A stretch of DNA of 63,430 bases from Abditibacteriaceae bacterium (GTDB lineage Bacteria; Armatimonadota; Abditibacteriia; Abditibacteriales; Abditibacteriaceae), in the NCBI GenBank assembly GCA_031372065.1, contig JANMKN010000273.1:1-63430 (forward strand), read 5' to 3'. Within the stretch, counting starts at the first letter, position 1. The number at the start of each line of letters is the position of its first letter. Shown here piece by piece: positions 1 to 6,197 of the stretch. The notes under the pieces were generated by a model. That model was not told the DNA's origin. It searched no databases and worked only from the letters and a program-made list of their open reading frames with translations. Position numbers and translations under genes: made by a program.

Positions 1-104
1 AACGCCAAGCTCAGCCGCCGCCGCAGGTAGCGACCAAGCTAAAATTACCCGACACGCTTTAATTTGCCAGAGCTTCGGCGGTCGGTTGCAGCGCCTTGTT
101 AGAC
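1..104 (-). other. attC site 1 (truncated at window edge)
   Basis: AAC...CAAGCTCAGCCGCC...GGCGGTCGGTTGCAGCGCCTTGTTAGAC. The R'' box GTCTAAC (minus strand) contains the stop codon of ORF 99..344. Confidence 0.92.
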
Positions 105-344
105 GGCGGTTGGTGACTTTTGCATCCAGTCCGAGAATTGATAGGCGGTGTCGCCAGCCGCGCCGTTCTCGATTTCATCGTTATCTTCCTGCTCTTGCGT
201 AATCACAAACGGGACGATAATTCCGTGTTTTTCGGCAAGGTCTTGAATTGTGCCGCCATCTTCCTCACCATCCCAACCCCAGCATCGCGTCCGAACAATG
301 GCGCGCACGAACTCTTTTAGCTTTTCGCTTTCGGCTTCTGTCAT
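99..344 (-). CDS. Cassette 1: small acidic hypothetical protein, phage-like (DGGTIQDLAEKHG)
   Basis: 81-aa ORF with AAGGAG RBS (351-356). Stop lies in attC1 R''. Cassette ends GTTAGACGGCGG (98) and CCGCCGTCTAAC (368-379) are complementary. Confidence 0.85.
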   Translation of the reverse strand: MTEAESEKLKEFVRAIVRTRCWGWDGEEDGGTIQDLAEKHGIIVPFVITQEQEDNDEIENGAAGDTAYQFSDWMQKSPTAV

Positions 345-372
345 TTGAATCTCCTTGCGGCAGCGCGCCGCC

Positions 373-473
373 GTCTAACGACTAAACTCAGCCGCCCAAA
401 CAGCGCGGCCACAAGTAATAATTACCCAAAACTAACGGGCGCTGTTTGGGTCGGTTGCAGTGCCTTGTTAGCT
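373..473 (-). other. attC site 2
   Basis: GTCTAAC...GTTAGCT, 101 bp, inner inverted repeat CCCAAACAGCGC/GCGCTGTTTGGG, conserved L boxes. Confidence 0.93.
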
Positions 474-767
474 TGCAGTTGTGAGCGTTTCGACTTCAAC
501 ATCCTCGCTTGTCACGCGTGCATTGATATTTATAAATGGCTCAACCTTCGAGCCGTTTATATGACCGTAACCCTCCGCAAAACCATCCCAACCGAAAAGA
601 TCGCGCGCTGCCATTTGAGCAATATGCTCTGCGTGTTCTTTAAGCGTTGTGAACGGATAAAACGATGCCCGAAATTCGGCCATGAATTTTTCGTCCATAC
701 TTTCATCGTCAATTTCGACTTGAACGACTGATGTTTGAATGACTTCGCACTCAAATTTATGAATCAT
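468..767 (-). CDS. Cassette 2: small acidic hypothetical protein, phage-like
   Basis: 99-aa ORF with GGGAGG RBS. Stop TAA lies in attC2 R''. Ends GTTAGCTTGCAG and CTGCAAGCTAAC are complementary. Confidence 0.85.
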   Translation of the reverse strand: MIHKFECEVIQTSVVQVEIDDESMDEKFMAEFRASFYPFTTLKEHAEHIAQMAARDLFGWDGFAEGYGHINGSKVEPFININARVTSEDVEVETLTTAS

Positions 768-801
768 AAACCTTCGACCTCCCTGAAAGCTGCGCGCTGC
801 A

Positions 802-893
802 AGCTAACGACCAAGCTCACCCGCCGCCGGAAGCGCAGCGAGGAGGAACGACGAGCGAAGATGTAGGCGGTCGGGTGCAGCGCCTTGTTAGGC
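802..893 (-). other. attC site 3
   Basis: AGCTAAC...GTTAGGC, 92 bp, same arm sequences as the other attCs. Confidence 0.93.
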
Positions 894-906
894 CGGTGTT
901 GATGCC

Positions 907-1470
907 TTACGACACCGGCCCGTATTTGATGTGCGTTACTTTCCAAGTTTTGCCCCTTCGTGTGAGTGTATAAGTATTGCTGGTGGCAAAGAGACCGCCG
1001 CCAAAGTAACCTCCTTTGGCTGTGACCTTGTTCCTGCTCAACCACCTGATGCTGGTGACTCTATAAATCAATCCTATATCTTTTGTCTGTTTATCTCTTA
1101 CCCACAAGCCGGAAGTTTTGGGGTCTGTGGATTTGGAATCAATGTAAGATTGGGAAACCCTTTTGATAGGCGGTTTGTGTCCTGCGAACCGCTTTAGCAA
1201 TTTGTCGCTTGGGTCTTTATCGTTTTCAACGGAAAGAAAATAGACCTTGAATGGATCAACATAATCTTTGGGCGCTTGAATTGGAGCAGGTTCTTTTACT
1301 TTCTTCTTCGGCTTCGCGCGAGACGGCAAAGGATACGGATGAAGCTGAAAACGGAATGCGGCTTCTCGAATATCGTCTTCTTGAATTACGCGCGAGGTTG
1401 GCGCAGCGTAAAGCGTGAAAGCACTTAACGAAAGTATGGTTACTGCGAGCAGTGTCGAGAGCCGAATCAT
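907..1470 (-). CDS. Cassette 3: secreted basic hypothetical protein
   Basis: ATG at 1470 (MIRLSTLLAVTILSLSAFTLYA signal peptide) with AGGAGG RBS at 1475-1480. 187 aa, Lys-rich. Confidence 0.85.
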   Translation of the reverse strand: MIRLSTLLAVTILSLSAFTLYAAPTSRVIQEDDIREAAFRFQLHPYPLPSRAKPKKKVKEPAPIQAPKDYVDPFKVYFLSVENDKDPSDKLLKRFAGHKPPIKRVSQSYIDSKSTDPKTSGLWVRDKQTKDIGLIYRVTSIRWLSRNKVTAKGGYFGGGLFATSNTYTLTRRGKTWKVTHIKYGPVS

Positions 1471-1489
1471 AGAACCTCCTGAACACCAT

Positions 1490-1969
1490 TTATTGTAGCA
1501 CACGCGACCAAGCCGCGCGCACCGGCCTAACAACTAAGCTCACCCGCCGCCCGCCGAATCGAGACCAAGTTGAGCGCAAGGCGACCACGCTCGAAAACCC
1601 GCCAAGCTGCGGGCGGTCGGGTGCAGCGCCTTGTTGGGCCGCTGTCAGGGAACCTTTTAATTCCCATGCCAAGTATTCGCGCTCCTTGCCGCCGACGATT
1701 TCTGTTTTGGAAGACCTAAACGAATTGACCAACGATTCTGTTATTCTGCCGCCGATTCGACCTGAATCATCGTAAACAACATAATCTCGACCCTCTTTCA
1801 AATCGTCTTTTACATCCTCATCTTCCACCCATAGAAAATTGAGTATTTTGTTTTCATAACTGATTTTACCTGACACGACACCATCCCACCTATCGCCTAA
1901 CTCAACGACAACAGCCACCAATTCTTCCAGTTCAAGTAATTTCGTTAATCCAATTTCAGGCTTGTTCAT
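1490..1969 (-). CDS. Cassette 4: acidic hypothetical protein whose frame reads through attC4
   Basis: ATG 1969 (MNKPEIG) with GGAGG RBS. AT-rich body. No stop before attC4 (R''=GCCCAAC), and the stop at 1490 lies inside cassette 3. Confidence 0.75.
   Translation of the reverse strand: MNKPEIGLTKLLELEELVAVVVELGDRWDGVVSGKISYENKILNFLWVEDEDVKDDLKEGRDYVVYDDSGRIGGRITESLVNSFRSSKTEIVGGKEREYLAWELKGSLTAAQQGAAPDRPQLGGFSSVVALRSTWSRFGGRRVSLVVRPVRAAWSRVLQ
1492..1500 (-). promoter_or_regulatory. Cassette-internal extended -10 promoter (TGcTACAAT) for cassette 3 gene
   Basis: Minus-strand TGCTACAAT about 20 nt upstream of the ATG, just upstream of the RBS. Confidence 0.5.
1525..1639 (-). other. attC site 4
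   Basis: GCCTAAC...GTTGGGC, 115 bp, closely similar to attC5 and attC6. Confidence 0.93.
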
Positions 1970-1999
1970 AAAATCTTGCCTCCTCGCTTTCGCGCAGCG

Positions 2000-2114
2000 G
2001 CCCAACGACCAAGCTCACCCGCCGCCCGCCAAATCGAGACCAAATTTGACTTAACGCGACCAAAAACGAGAACCAGCCAAACTGCGGGCGGTCGGGTGCA
2101 GCGCCTTGTTGGGC
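2000..2114 (-). other. attC site 5
   Basis: GCCCAAC...GTTGGGC, 115 bp. Confidence 0.93.
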
Positions 2115-2321
2115 AGCACTGAATTTGACGACGCGAACCGAGGCCCAAAAACCCGCGCCGACGCCGAAAAGCCGGCGCACCCGACAACCAAAACGCCGCG
2201 CTGAAACCCGCCAACGATGCGGACAAATGCACGCCGCCGACATGAAAAACCGCGAAAATGAGCCGAAATATGGCCGCCAGAAGCCCAAAAACGCTACCCA
2301 TCAAGCAAATCTCGCGTTGCG
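2115..2321 (-). other. Cassette 5: apparently ORF-less cassette (paralog of cassette 6)
   Basis: 207 bp between attC5 and attC6. No RBS-led ORF conserved with cassette 6. Confidence 0.7.
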
Positions 2322-2436
2322 GCCCAACGACTAAGCTCACCCGCCGCCCGCCAAATTACGACCAAGTTTGACACAAGGCGACCAAAAATGAGAACCAGCC
2401 AAGCTGCGGGCGGTCGGGTGCAGCGCCTTGTTGGGC
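2322..2436 (-). other. attC site 6
   Basis: GCCCAAC...GTTGGGC, 115 bp. Confidence 0.93.
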
Positions 2437-2641
2437 AGCATTGGGTTTGATGACGCGGCCCGATGCCCAAACGCTGCGCCGACGCCGAAAAGCCTCGCTC
2501 GCCACAAAACCAAAACGTATTGCTAAAACCCGCCAAAAGCGGACAAAAGCACGCCGCCGACACGAAAAGCGGGGAAAATGAGCCGAAATATCGCTGCCCG
2601 AAGCCCAGAAACCGCGCAGATGAAGGAAAGCTGGCGTTGCG
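2437..2641 (-). other. Cassette 6 (attI-proximal): apparently ORF-less cassette
   Basis: 205 bp, collinear with cassette 5 but with a 2-nt indel. Confidence 0.7.
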
Positions 2642-2662
2642 GCCCAACTATGTAATTAGACC
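2642..2662 (-). other. attI recombination site
   Basis: Minus strand GTCTAAT-TACATA-GTTGGGC: L-like box, spacer and GTTRRRY core with no attC hairpin, at the intI-proximal end of the array. Confidence 0.8.
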
Positions 2663-2840
2663 GACTTTTTTCCATATAACGTCTCCTTATGCGGTATTAT
2701 ACGGAAAATTGTCGGTTTTAGGGCGATTTTTGCGGTATTATCAGGAAAATATTCTGTAAAATGACGTTAATTAGGCGATTATATAGAATATTTTCCGTAT
2801 AGCGCGCCAAATTGCGGCCAATACGGAAATTTTTCCGGAT
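2658..2840. repeat. Five 20-bp imperfect palindromes (consensus ~ATACGGAAAATATTCCGTAT) at 41/41/41/40-bp spacing
   Basis: Units start at 2658, 2699, 2740, 2781 and 2821. Confidence 0.8.
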
Positions 2841-2854
2841 AACTCCGCTACTAC

Positions 2855-2863
2855 TGGTATAAT
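2855..2863 (+). promoter_or_regulatory. Extended -10 promoter of intI (TGgTATAAT), near-leaderless transcript
   Basis: Perfect TGnTATAAT ending 10 nt before ATG 2874. No SD sequence. Confidence 0.65.
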
Positions 2864-2873
2864 AGCGCCCAGT

Positions 2874-3902
2874 ATGAACGAAAACAATCAGACCTTTGAC
2901 CAAGATCAAACATTACAGGGGCCACTCCATCAGCAGAAAAAATTCACTTCACTCGATGATTTTTTGAGCGATTGTCAGGGCGTTATGCGTTTGCGACGCT
3001 TAAGTTTGCGCACCGAAGAATCGTATTTGTTCTACATCCGGCGCTTTATCAAATTTCATGGCAAGCGGCCCGATGTCATGGGCGTTAGCGAAGTCGAACA
3101 GTTTCTCACGTTTTTAGCTGCCGAAGAAAATGTCGCGGCTTCCACACAAAATGTCGCTTTTTCCGCGCTTTTGTTTTTGTATCGTCATGTTTTAGAGCAA
3201 CCTTTGCCGCCTCTCATTGCAGCCGTGCGCGCCAAACGACAGCGCCGCGCGCCGGTTGTGCTTTCCAAGCAAGAAGTGACGCTGCTTTTGGCTCACTTGC
3301 CCGCGCCGCACGACCTCATGGCCTCACTGCTTTATGGCTCCGGCTTACGTTTGATGGAACTTTTGCGCTTGCGCGTGAAAGATGTAGATTTCGAGCGCGG
3401 TTTGCTGGTTGTTTATCAGGGCAAAGGCGATAAAGATCGCCACACGCTTTTGCCAAATAGTCTGCGCGAGCCGTTGCGCCTTCATTTGCAAGAAACGCAT
3501 TTGCGCTGGCAACAAGCGCAAACCATCAAAAAGCTGCCGGTTTATATGCCCGGCGCTTTGGCGCGCAAATATCCGCAAGCGGCTTTTGAATGGGCATGGC
3601 AATGGGTTTTTCCGGCCTCGCAGTCGGCGCTCGACCCGCGCGATGGAAACGAAAAACGTCATCACTGGCGCGAAGATACTTTGCAAAAAGCCGTCAAAAA
3701 AGCTACGCGCGGAGCGGAAATTCATAAAAATGTCTCGCCCCACACGCTGCGCCATTCGTTTGCCACGCACCTTTTGGAAGATGGCTACGATATTCGCACC
3801 GTGCAGGAATTGCTCGGTCATCAAGACATCCGCACCACGCAAATTTACACTCACGTTATGAATCGCCCCGGTCTGGGCGTGCGCAGTCCGTTGGATAATT
3901 AA
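2874..3902 (+). CDS. intI: Integron integrase
   Basis: LLYGSGLR, KGDKDR, HTLRHSFATHLLEDGYDIRTVQELLGH..TTQIYTHV, plus the IntI-specific insertion (WAWQWVFPAS..DPR..RHH). Confidence 0.97.
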   Translation: MNENNQTFDQDQTLQGPLHQQKKFTSLDDFLSDCQGVMRLRRLSLRTEESYLFYIRRFIKFHGKRPDVMGVSEVEQFLTFLAAEENVAASTQNVAFSALLFLYRHVLEQPLPPLIAAVRAKRQRRAPVVLSKQEVTLLLAHLPAPHDLMASLLYGSGLRLMELLRLRVKDVDFERGLLVVYQGKGDKDRHTLLPNSLREPLRLHLQETHLRWQQAQTIKKLPVYMPGALARKYPQAAFEWAWQWVFPASQSALDPRDGNEKRHHWREDTLQKAVKKATRGAEIHKNVSPHTLRHSFATHLLEDGYDIRTVQELLGHQDIRTTQIYTHVMNRPGLGVRSPLDN

Positions 3903-3920
3903 AATTGTCGAAAGCAATCC

Positions 3921-6197
3921 ATGAAACCATTTTTATTCGGCGCCTTAGCGCTTTTGGCATCTGCAACTTTGCCCGTTTTGGCCCAAAATCAACATCCTGC
4001 GCTGCCACTTTTGCGCGTGCCGCAGGGCGCGGGCATCAATATTCATTTCACCGACCCGCAGCCCGGCGAGATGAAAATGTTGGCCGACGGCTATCGTTTT
4101 GTGCGCATGGATTTTTCGTGGGGCGGCACCGAAAAGGAAAAGGGCGTTTACGATTTTTCGGCGTATGATCGCTTGCTCAAATCGTGCGATGAACATAAAG
4201 TCCGCGCGCTGTTTATTCTCGATTACGGCAATAATCTTTACGACGATGGCCTATCGCCGCACACGGACGAAGGCCGCGCCGCTATGGGAAAATGGGCCGC
4301 CGCTGCCGTGACGCATTTCAAAGGACGCGGCGTGCTGTGGGAAATGTTCAACGAGCCAAATATCGGCTTTTGGAAGCCCAAACCCAATGTGAACGACTAC
4401 ATTTTGATGGACAAGGCCGTGGCCGCTGCGATTCGACAGGCCGCGCCGGGCGAATGCTATTTCGGCGCTGCGACTTCGACGATTGATATGAAGTTTCTCG
4501 AAGCCTGTTTTCAAAGTGGCGCGCTCGAACGCTGGGACGCGGTTTCGGTGCATCCTTATCGGCAAAATGACCCCGAAACCGTTGCTGGCGAATATCGCAA
4601 TTTGCGAATGCTCATTGAGCGCTACAAGCCGAAAAATAAAGTCGTTCCGATTATTTCCGGCGAATGGGGCTATTCGACAGCGTGGGACAAATTCAATTAC
4701 GAGCGCCAAGGCAAATATCTACCGCGTCAATGGATGACGAATTTGATGAACGATGTGCCTATTTCTATCTTTTACGACTGGCACGATGACGGAGTTGACC
4801 CCAAAGAATCGGAGCATCATTTCGGCACCGTCGAAAACCAAACCTTTGCGGGCCGTGACCCGATTTACAATCCGAAACCCAGTTACACCGCTGCCAAAAC
4901 CTTAACTCATTTTTTCGACGGCTACGATTTCAACAAGCGCTTGGCGCTCGTTTCGCCGGACGATTATTTATTGCTTTTCACCAAAGGCGCCAGCCTAAAA
5001 CTCGCGGTTTGGACGACCAAAGAAGCGCATGAAATCACAGTTCCAGCTTCGGCGGGCAGATTTCGCGTGACCGATTATTTGGGCGCCACGCAACCGGAAA
5101 TGACAGCCGTAACCGGCGGCTTAAAATTGCAAATCAGCGACGGGCCGCTGTATTTGGAGCCGACAGTTTCCAACACGATTTTGCGTAGTGCCGCGACGTG
5201 GGCGCGTGTGCCCTTGGATATGTTTGTCAAAGCGCCAAACAGAGTAAAAACAGGCGGATTTTCGTTGATAACTGATCGCACAGGAAACCAAATACCTATC
5301 GCCCAAATCAAAGAGGTTTTGGTCACACGCAACTCATCAAATCAAATGGTGCGGCGCTTCAAGTGGGTTGAAGGTGTCACTCTTAGACAAACCAGCGAAG
5401 CCGTCGTTACCAATCCGTTGCGGCTAACGCTATCGCCCGCCGGACAAAATCTTGTGGTCAAGGTGGAAAACCCATCTGGCGAGGCCCTGTCGGGGCGCAT
5501 AGTCGGCAATTACAATGAGCCGCAAAACATCGTTTTCAATACGGGCGAAACCGAAAAAACCGTATCGCTGCGTGGTGCGCAGGCTACAGGATTCAGCGGT
5601 GGATGGGAAACGAAAGTGCGTTTCGAAGGCACGGATCCACTGGATGTCGTTGAAGAAAAACGCGGTTTTTCTCCGATTTGGCAAATGCACGTTCTCAATG
5701 AAGTATCGCTGCCCAAAGATTACAAAATTACTCCCGATGGGGATGCCAAAATCGAATCCGAGCAAACGCTTTCAGTGGAACAACCCGCTGAAGGCCCATC
5801 GCCCGCCGACGGCCCATCCTTGAGACTGACTTATCGCTTCGCGCCCGGCTGGAAGTTCGCCAATTTACAGCCAATGAACAAAAGTATTCAGAAAATGGCG
5901 GCTCAAGCCAAAGCGCTTGGAATGTGGATTTACGGCGATAATTCGGGCAATGTTTTGCGAATGCGCTACCGCGATGCGGGCGGGCAAACGTTTCAACCCA
6001 ACGGCACGAGCGTCAACTGGCAAGGCTGGAAATATTTCGAGTTTCCTCTTGATGGCAGCGGCGGTCATTGGGGCGGCGCCGCAGACGGCAAACTGCACTA
6101 CCCGCTTCAACTGGAATCGCTGCTCATTTTCGATTCCATCAAAAGCGAAAACAATCGCGGCGCCATCTACCTGAGCGCGCCAATGTGGATTTATTGA
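3921..6197 (+). CDS. Secreted clan-A glycoside hydrolase (GH5/GH39-like) with C-terminal carbohydrate-binding-like domain
   Basis: Signal peptide, WEMFNEPN acid/base motif, SVHPY, ISGEWGY nucleophile, C-terminal LGMWIYGDNSG/VNWQGWK. Confidence 0.8.
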   Translation: MKPFLFGALALLASATLPVLAQNQHPALPLLRVPQGAGINIHFTDPQPGEMKMLADGYRFVRMDFSWGGTEKEKGVYDFSAYDRLLKSCDEHKVRALFILDYGNNLYDDGLSPHTDEGRAAMGKWAAAAVTHFKGRGVLWEMFNEPNIGFWKPKPNVNDYILMDKAVAAAIRQAAPGECYFGAATSTIDMKFLEACFQSGALERWDAVSVHPYRQNDPETVAGEYRNLRMLIERYKPKNKVVPIISGEWGYSTAWDKFNYERQGKYLPRQWMTNLMNDVPISIFYDWHDDGVDPKESEHHFGTVENQTFAGRDPIYNPKPSYTAAKTLTHFFDGYDFNKRLALVSPDDYLLLFTKGASLKLAVWTTKEAHEITVPASAGRFRVTDYLGATQPEMTAVTGGLKLQISDGPLYLEPTVSNTILRSAATWARVPLDMFVKAPNRVKTGGFSLITDRTGNQIPIAQIKEVLVTRNSSNQMVRRFKWVEGVTLRQTSEAVVTNPLRLTLSPAGQNLVVKVENPSGEALSGRIVGNYNEPQNIVFNTGETEKTVSLRGAQATGFSGGWETKVRFEGTDPLDVVEEKRGFSPIWQMHVLNEVSLPKDYKITPDGDAKIESEQTLSVEQPAEGPSPADGPSLRLTYRFAPGWKFANLQPMNKSIQKMAAQAKALGMWIYGDNSGNVLRMRYRDAGGQTFQPNGTSVNWQGWKYFEFPLDGSGGHWGGAADGKLHYPLQLESLLIFDSIKSENNRGAIYLSAPMWIY

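Follow-up and report, generated by a model that had tools for sequence, protein, structure and literature searches.

The integrase IntI1 binds four places in attI1, namely R, L, DR1 and DR2 (PMC12901181). The two repeats DR1 and DR2 favour recombination between attI1 and attC and are thought to be rare (PMC8946536; 10.1101/2020.11.24.395434); most attI sites are said to be without accessory repeats, and attI1 may have acquired its own (PMC3146285, PMC8946536, 10.1101/2020.11.24.395434). The recombinase TnpI uses its own accessory repeats beside the core as a topological filter (PMC2847244). As for regulation, many intI genes are controlled by LexA, and it has been called open how intact integrases without LexA are restrained (PMC3108266). 

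Here, we analyse a stretch of 63,430 nucleotides from an Abditibacteriaceae bacterium (contig JANMKN010000273.1), which we call the window (Table 1). It contains an IntI-family recombinase, an attI simple site between intI and the first cassette, and a cassette array bounded by attC sites. The catalytic residues of the integrase are intact, as R159, K184, H290, R293, H316 and Y325 are all invariant compared to IntI1. We infer that the crossover, G/TT, lies between positions 2648 and 2647 in the attI R box. The first attC folds into a long hairpin, with a z-score of only -1.6. The first two cassettes (2007–2647), both about 320 bp long and 79% alike, have neither a Pfam match nor another copy in the genome and possibly contain no ORF. 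On the other side of intI, at 3921–6197, a secreted protein of 758 aa is encoded that has a glycoside-hydrolase-like NEP motif by eye and matches neither Pfam nor NCBIfam at E 0.001.

Table 1. Features of the integron in the window, with positions counted from its first nucleotide (+ and -, strand;., no strand)
Feature	Position	Strand	Remarks
Remaining cassette array	1..2327	-	Exits the contig end; five more attC-like ends
attC ending first cassette	2322..2436	-	
First cassette	2328..2647	-	About 320 bp; 79% like the second cassette; without Pfam match
attI R box	2642..2648	-	GTTGGGC on the minus strand (GCCCAAC on plus); related loci share its position and a GTTRRRY-like consensus
Central spacer of attI simple site	2649..2654	.	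6 bp
Box 1	2655..2680	.	Left arm 2655-2665, the attI L box with its flank; right arm 2670-2680, the minus-strand arm at +15
CCGCA family-type arm	2690..2700	-	At +35 from L; shares 5 bp with box 2; 13.8 bits with the motif from relatives only
Box 2	2696..2721	.	12 bp at 2714-2725 match the L box of attI1 and its flank exactly
Second family-type arm	2731..2741	-	41 bp after the arm at 2690; 13.8 bits
Box 3	2737..2762	.	
Box 4	2778..2803	.	Best box of the genome under the matrix from metagenome loci only
Box 5	2818..2843	.	Lies over 2835-2840, the -35 zone of the presumed promoter of intI; -35 consensus absent there
Weak family-type arm pair	2839..2863	.	2839-2849 plus, 2853-2863 minus; 6.5 and 4.2 bits; ends in the -10 hexamer
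Extended -10, TGgTATAAT	2855..2863	+	10 nt ahead of the start codon of intI; in several relatives, TATAAT lies 7-11 nt ahead of the probable ATG
intI	2874..3902	+	Integron integrase of 342 aa; TIGR02249 418.7 bits (cut-off 265)

Between the attI core and intI, a first-pass annotation made from the letters of the sequence had placed five palindromic boxes with a regular spacing. All five 20-mers are found there, at distances of 41, 41, 41 and 40 bp. The sequence identity at lag 41 over 2649–2873 is 0.51, compared to a mean of 0.35 for the best lag of shuffled sequences, and was reached by none of 1000 dinucleotide shuffles; the G+C/A+T pattern of the array has a period of 10.25 bp, which was also reached by none of 1000 shuffles. 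The palindromes are imperfect (8–16 of 20 positions are self-complementary), and the core that had been proposed for them, CGGA-N6-TCCG, is exact in box 5 only. Each box is more accurately described as 26 bp long, consisting of an 11-bp arm, 4 bp and an inverted arm, with an identity of 6–7 of 11 positions between arms. The contact between box 1 and the L box had thus been recognized but understated, as the whole left arm is the L box plus flank. This L arm is among the weakest of the window (2.7 and 6.1 bits). The position of box 5 over the -35 zone of a presumed TGgTATAAT promoter was correctly described. Further minus-strand arms at 2690, 2731, 2813 and 2853 had been omitted.

The array had been said to match neither the direct repeats of attI1 nor LexA control. 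The part on LexA holds, whereas the part on attI1 does not: relative to L, the inverted GTT arms of an attI1 sequence are located at +16 and +35, and the first two minus arms of the window at +15 and +35. The attI1 arms at +16 and +35 have the sequences given for DR1 and DR2 (PMC3146285). This shared register suggests an extension of known accessory sites rather than the operator of a new protein. The 12-bp identity of box 2 to the L region of attI1 was noticed after the fact. We thus consider 2655–2863 to be probably an extended accessory part of attI, that is, an array bound by IntI. The array is regular in its architecture, conserved, and linked to attI; binding by IntI is our reading of these sequences.

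Lack of conservation of motif and spacing in related integrons had been named as part of the grounds for rejecting the proposed role of the array, and we find both conserved elsewhere. Among 26 other genomes of the family that were searched, 12 have intI. The 41-bp CGGA/TCCG pattern is absent from the attI-intI intervals of these relatives; in its place, copies of a related half-site, ATTATRCCGCA, recur there, starting with the L box. A matrix built from 13 related intervals, with the window excluded, has 22 matches in the window including overlapping double ones (shuffle mean 7.4), a number reached by none of 2000 shuffles and none of 416 GC-matched genomic tiles. TATAAT forms the end of the last minus arm in six relatives (L011, L012, L013, L014, L020 and L009) and in the window, and in each it lies 7–11 nt upstream of the probable ATG, whereas the distance to attI differs among them. 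Contig C218 of the same genome carries a near-identical partial copy, which starts within box 3 and runs into the first codons of intI, ahead of a decayed integrase; its version of the last arm pair (2839..2863 in the window) scores 18.2 as a pair. The decayed gene lies at a contig end (L002:1-600) and is chimeric, with promoter and first codons almost the same as those of the window and a broken C-terminal part that is 51% identical.

Arrays of this kind could also be a by-product of tandem amplification of the L side of attI, by slippage or aberrant recombination between attI sites, with little function past the first one or two arms. The number of boxes ranges from one to five among loci, the unit in the window is a degenerate tandem repeat, and one cryptic R-5-L pair, which could be a secondary crossover, lies within the array at 2674–2696. 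Nevertheless, we regard such an origin as improbable, since the arms are conserved while linkers diverge, a period of 40–41 bp occurs in unrelated integrons with different linkers, and arrays within the family have other near-helical spacings (10, 14, 20, 52 and 63).

A scan of metagenomes with a pattern for the box alone, which had no attI term, found at least 121 loci. Among the 121 matches listed, AAC occurs 4–6 nt before the box in 70, in 67 of these at exactly 5 nt, compared to a median of 6 loci over all 64 trinucleotides; the next two trinucleotides, ACT and TAA, are the AAC site shifted by one base. Among the 48 non-redundant anchored loci in these listed matches, the next L-oriented arm follows at +40 (15 loci) or +41 (8 loci) in 23, and an inverted arm lies at +54/55 in 11. 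The linkers are mostly 15 bp long (20 of 24) and have conserved CC and GG. An IntI hit at E 1e-5 is present in only 5 of the 29 anchored loci whose sequence extends for 1 kb on the side of intI. Under more permissive settings, an IntI hit occurs in 15 of 65 box-bearing regions, and IntI is the only recurrent ORF family. A separate pattern, which was too strict, matched only 2 of 104 loci. The nearest named record to the metagenome integrases is that of the plasmid pB of Kovacikia minuta (NZ_CP083584.1, Cyanobacteriota), which is 70% identical to the integrase of one metagenome locus (L184).

The same plasmid is the top plasmid hit to the integrase of the window, and its integron has an R box followed by four boxes whose left arms start at 922, 962, 1001 and 1041, about 40 bp apart. 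Selecting loci by their integrase also yielded an integron from Ignavibacteriota (L042) and one from the Ignavibacteriota phylum (L315) with three boxes about 40 bp apart and a different arm sequence, and one with two boxes from the class of a Nitrospiraceae genome (L348). To the protein-selected loci we applied a rule for calling attI that is blind to downstream repeats. It called 60 of 135 loci, of which 48 were non-redundant, with the window excluded. The L arm of the same integron recurs inverted at +13–16 in 8 of the 48 (1.3 with swapped arms, 0 of 300 reaching the observed count), at +24–29 in 6 of the 48 (1 of 300) and in direct orientation at +39–42 in 4 of the 48 (0.64 with swapped arms, 0 of 300). 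No significance was found over the 48 at +53–56, at +79–83 or in three control windows, and the mean identity of 25-nt boxes has no peak at lag 40. A previous run, in which 29 of 76 loci were called (window included) and 23 sites were non-redundant, had an excess of the own arm on the intI side (0 of 1000) and none on the cassette side (574 of 1000). Protein-selected loci are related in groups, and the counts are not independent; the caller also missed or miscalled L042 in the 23-site run and L013, L316 and L328 in the 48-integron run, all of which were kept in. The layout of the array is recurrent, not universal.

Two further observations concern these loci. Most of the 30 loci of the Nitrospira class have long N-terminal extensions and no attI call; L284, L285, L301 and many of L334-L362 encode IntI-family proteins with such extensions (open frames of 400–570 aa) and no attI call nearby. 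Ten integrons of the Ignavibacteriota phylum (L318, L320, L321, L325-L329, L331 and L332) have a conserved TGTAAG just upstream of intI, in several cases followed by CTTAC or CTAAC about 20 nt on, which is a possible lineage-specific operator.

If the arms are bound by IntI, a correspondence between arm and integrase might be expected, and IntI proteins are reported to be attI-specific (PMC2095811). In a quick tree of 69 rows, from which 9 near-duplicates and proteins under 240 aa were left out and in which distant integrases from the genome-contig scan served as outgroups, GGAA-type and CCGCA-type arms need three changes each. The integrase of the window lies inside the CCGCA-rich family clade, distant from the GGAA group of the metagenomes. 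Thus, tight co-evolution of arm and IntI is not apparent.

This poor tracking of the IntI tree by arm type would suit a different protein acting in trans on the boxes, either assisting recombination at attI or repressing intI. Candidates are a host Xer-type recombinase, a nucleoid protein that wraps DNA on the 10.25-bp lattice, and a small protein dedicated to this accessory role. The arm is indeed Xer-like, and the genome has 14 matches to the XerD model, none of them over the cut-off; the strong 10.25-bp period suits wrapping; and host factors are suspected for attIA of Vibrio (10.1101/2020.11.24.395434). However, no conserved small ORF or accessory gene was found behind the 65 box-bearing regions or between intI and attI of the window, where the two short ORFs over the interval have no Pfam match. 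The layout is the same in several phyla, with arms that follow the L box of each integron. Furthermore, no strong dif-like inward pair of window-type arms stands out in the genome, and a pattern of attI plus arm has no credible match in any of the nine family genomes with a completeness of 90% or more and no intI hit (one match, L149, was judged false). We therefore think a separate trans-acting protein unlikely, and retain IntI as the probable ligand.

Across all 27 genomes of the family, the strict version of the attI-plus-arm pattern matched 15 places in 9 genomes, compared to 2 for a reversed control, and three of its matches were judged false (L149, L152 and L153). In the genome of the window, the relaxed version gave 17 matches, of which 11 were judged attI-like by eye. 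The top family-type arm pairs elsewhere in this genome are likewise attI-like, with core and cassette and without intI (contigs C43, C356, C402, C236, C125 and C53). Under the box matrix built from metagenome loci only, boxes 4, 5, 3 and 1 of the window rank 1, 3, 4 and 6 among 152 genomic pairs, and the copy on C218 ranks 2 and 8; box 2 is outside the best 14 of the 152. Some attI sites without intI retain a decayed intI start, from which we conclude that many are remnants.

In total, about 12 attI-like sites without intI were noted in this genome (contigs C16, C43, C53, C55, C125, C211, C228, C236, C277, C356, C369 and C402). Many of them then carry one cassette that ends in half an attC (AACAAGAGACTATG, 16 copies in the genome), and a terminator-like hairpin, also with 16 genomic copies, is common to the single-cassette units. 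These dispersed units are possibly served in trans.

Next to an accessory role in recombination, the first-pass annotation had proposed an operator linking attI with the intI promoter. Our results back the accessory array but not control by LexA or membership in a regulon. As both lexA and recA are present in the genome, the boxes might be operators of a lineage-specific LexA or of another damage-response repressor. As had been stated, the interval has no canonical LexA box: none of nine SOS-box patterns matches 2640–2900. The array motif is not clustered upstream of 24 recA or 10 lexA-like genes, where single matches reach 14 bits at most, and the best sites of the genome lie at attI. The recA genes have a different palindrome, TCAYTG-N4-CARTGA, which in a loose pattern occurs in 23 of 24 family upstream regions and in none of 14 intI intervals. 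It lies directly downstream of the recA -10 (L027, i.e. G000:C88 at about 5190–5205, and L108-L130), and in many cases another half-copy is present between -35 and -10. As it has only four strict matches in this genome, it is a candidate recA operator rather than an established SOS box. Two lexA-like loci (L139 and L140) have an upstream ATACGG half-site, in the opposite polarity. The palindrome CCGTAT-N4-ATACGG, found upstream of these below-cut-off lexA homologues and more weakly in L137, is a candidate autoregulatory operator. Taken together, we judge control of the array by a damage-response repressor to be very improbable. A reading modelled on Deinococcus RDRM/DdrO, whose sites the 17-bp junctions of the array resemble, was dropped because genome scans gave no regulon, although Peptidase_M78 genes exist.

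The inverted arms might also act as DNA structures, i.e. hairpins or cruciforms in single strands as in attC, or as stacked promoters. The minus strand of the array folds at -41.9 kcal/mol (z -4.8), and several TATAAT hexamers are present on both strands. However, dispersed inverted repeats yield such folds anyway, and compensatory pairing is absent at one of two free arm positions and in the linkers of the metagenome loci (observed value reached by 4589 of 5000 swaps). An Rfam search of window positions 1–4200 gave no match. Regarding promoters, two minus-strand TATAAT hexamers (2696–2701 and 2778–2783) had been suggested as -10 elements of Pc. Both are present, but they belong to the arm consensus and are not reported by the promoter scan, which gave one site compared to 0.9 expected. 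A general promoter motif was also tried and rejected: GCGG is not enriched before 1250 genomic TATAAT hexamers, so that this flank of TATAAT is not a general promoter feature. Structures or stacked promoters thus appear extremely improbable to us as the purpose of the arms. On the plus strand, TGgTATAAT (2855..2863) is presumed to be PintI with a short leader. Separately, cassette 5' ends at 1492–1520 of the window (minus strand) and on C402 and C53 share GCGCGC, 17 nt and TACAAT shortly before the ATG, which suggests cassette-borne promoters; if so, Pc would be needed less.

Under the reading that we prefer, with IntI on its own half-sites, the array would consist of half-sites that are copies of the L arm and follow each other in phase with the helix. 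R and L, the only pair adjoining the cassette junction, would be occupied by IntI monomers, and more monomers would load behind them, two per 41-bp box and on one helical face. Since the arms of a box point outwards and are 4 bp apart, they would be expected to bind but not to cleave. The bound row could retain IntI in the vicinity of the crossover and make the DNA bend or wrap, which would favour insertion by recombination between attI and attC, in analogy to DR1 and DR2 in attI1 and to the accessory repeats for TnpI. TnpI also represses its own promoter. For IntI, a rising concentration could similarly damp its own promoter, since the -35 zone lies under the last boxes, which finish in the -10 hexamer. 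Such autorepression is plausible and, on the whole, a tentative proposal, inferred from the overlap; this overlap may be incidental, as the arm consensus inherently contains TATAAT and the interval is short. The arm closest to the -10 is weak as well (4.2 bits).

What might this mean for integrons in general? A bolder idea, which we hold to be possible but doubtful, is that in integrons of several phyla without a LexA box, half-sites for IntI, lined up in phase between the crossover and the intI promoter, serve both as an accessory to capture and as a negative feedback switch for intI, and that DR1 and DR2 of attI1 are the trimmed form of an older, widespread design. If this is true, the arm-pair signature would find attI sites throughout genomes, including the many that are left without an adjoining integrase. 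An accessory array in several phyla, in the register of DR1 and DR2, challenges the view that the repeats of attI1 are rare or acquired, and it offers a testable answer to how intact integrases without LexA are restrained. We found no description of inverted attI arrays phased at 40–41 bp or of IntI autoregulation in the openly accessible main texts and abstracts searched, among them PMC8876359, PMC4792948, 10.1101/427781 and 10.64898/2026.03.17.712381.

Lastly, we compare the array to the known systems. The LexA-controlled PintI of class 1 and Vibrio integrons resembles the window in that a candidate repressor site overlaps the intI promoter beside attI; unlike there, no known SOS box is present, and the palindrome of the family's recA genes is absent. 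The likeness to Xer and dif consists of 11-bp arms with TTAT adjoining a 6-bp spacer. An arm of the array matches 9 of 11 positions of the E. coli dif arm (ATTATGCGGAA); as the record carries no annotation of dif, the site compared is a putative one. In cer and psi, the accessory proteins PepA and ArgR/ArcA act on unrelated sequences, whereas the accessory sequences of the window are outward-pointing copies of the recombinase arm. With TnpI and the IRS of Tn4430, the proposed likeness is that a tyrosine recombinase itself takes the accessory role by occupying repeats next to the core. Nevertheless, the IRS carries two accessory motifs in direct orientation and serves to resolve cointegrates, with both recombining sites double-stranded, whereas the window has an attI with paired inverted arms. 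The likeness to attI1 includes the order R, spacer and L, the core-like sites in R orientation that follow at +15/16 and +35, and similar L arms. attI1 has two accessory sites, which are direct repeats only, within 65 bp; the window has five 26-bp boxes at 41 bp with arms in both orientations, plus further minus arms, in an array of about 210 bp that extends to the intI promoter and has no LexA box. Judged by these sequence comparisons, the array is best seen as a variant of the accessory-site design of attI1 that recurs in several phyla, and its inverted, phased form appears to be new.
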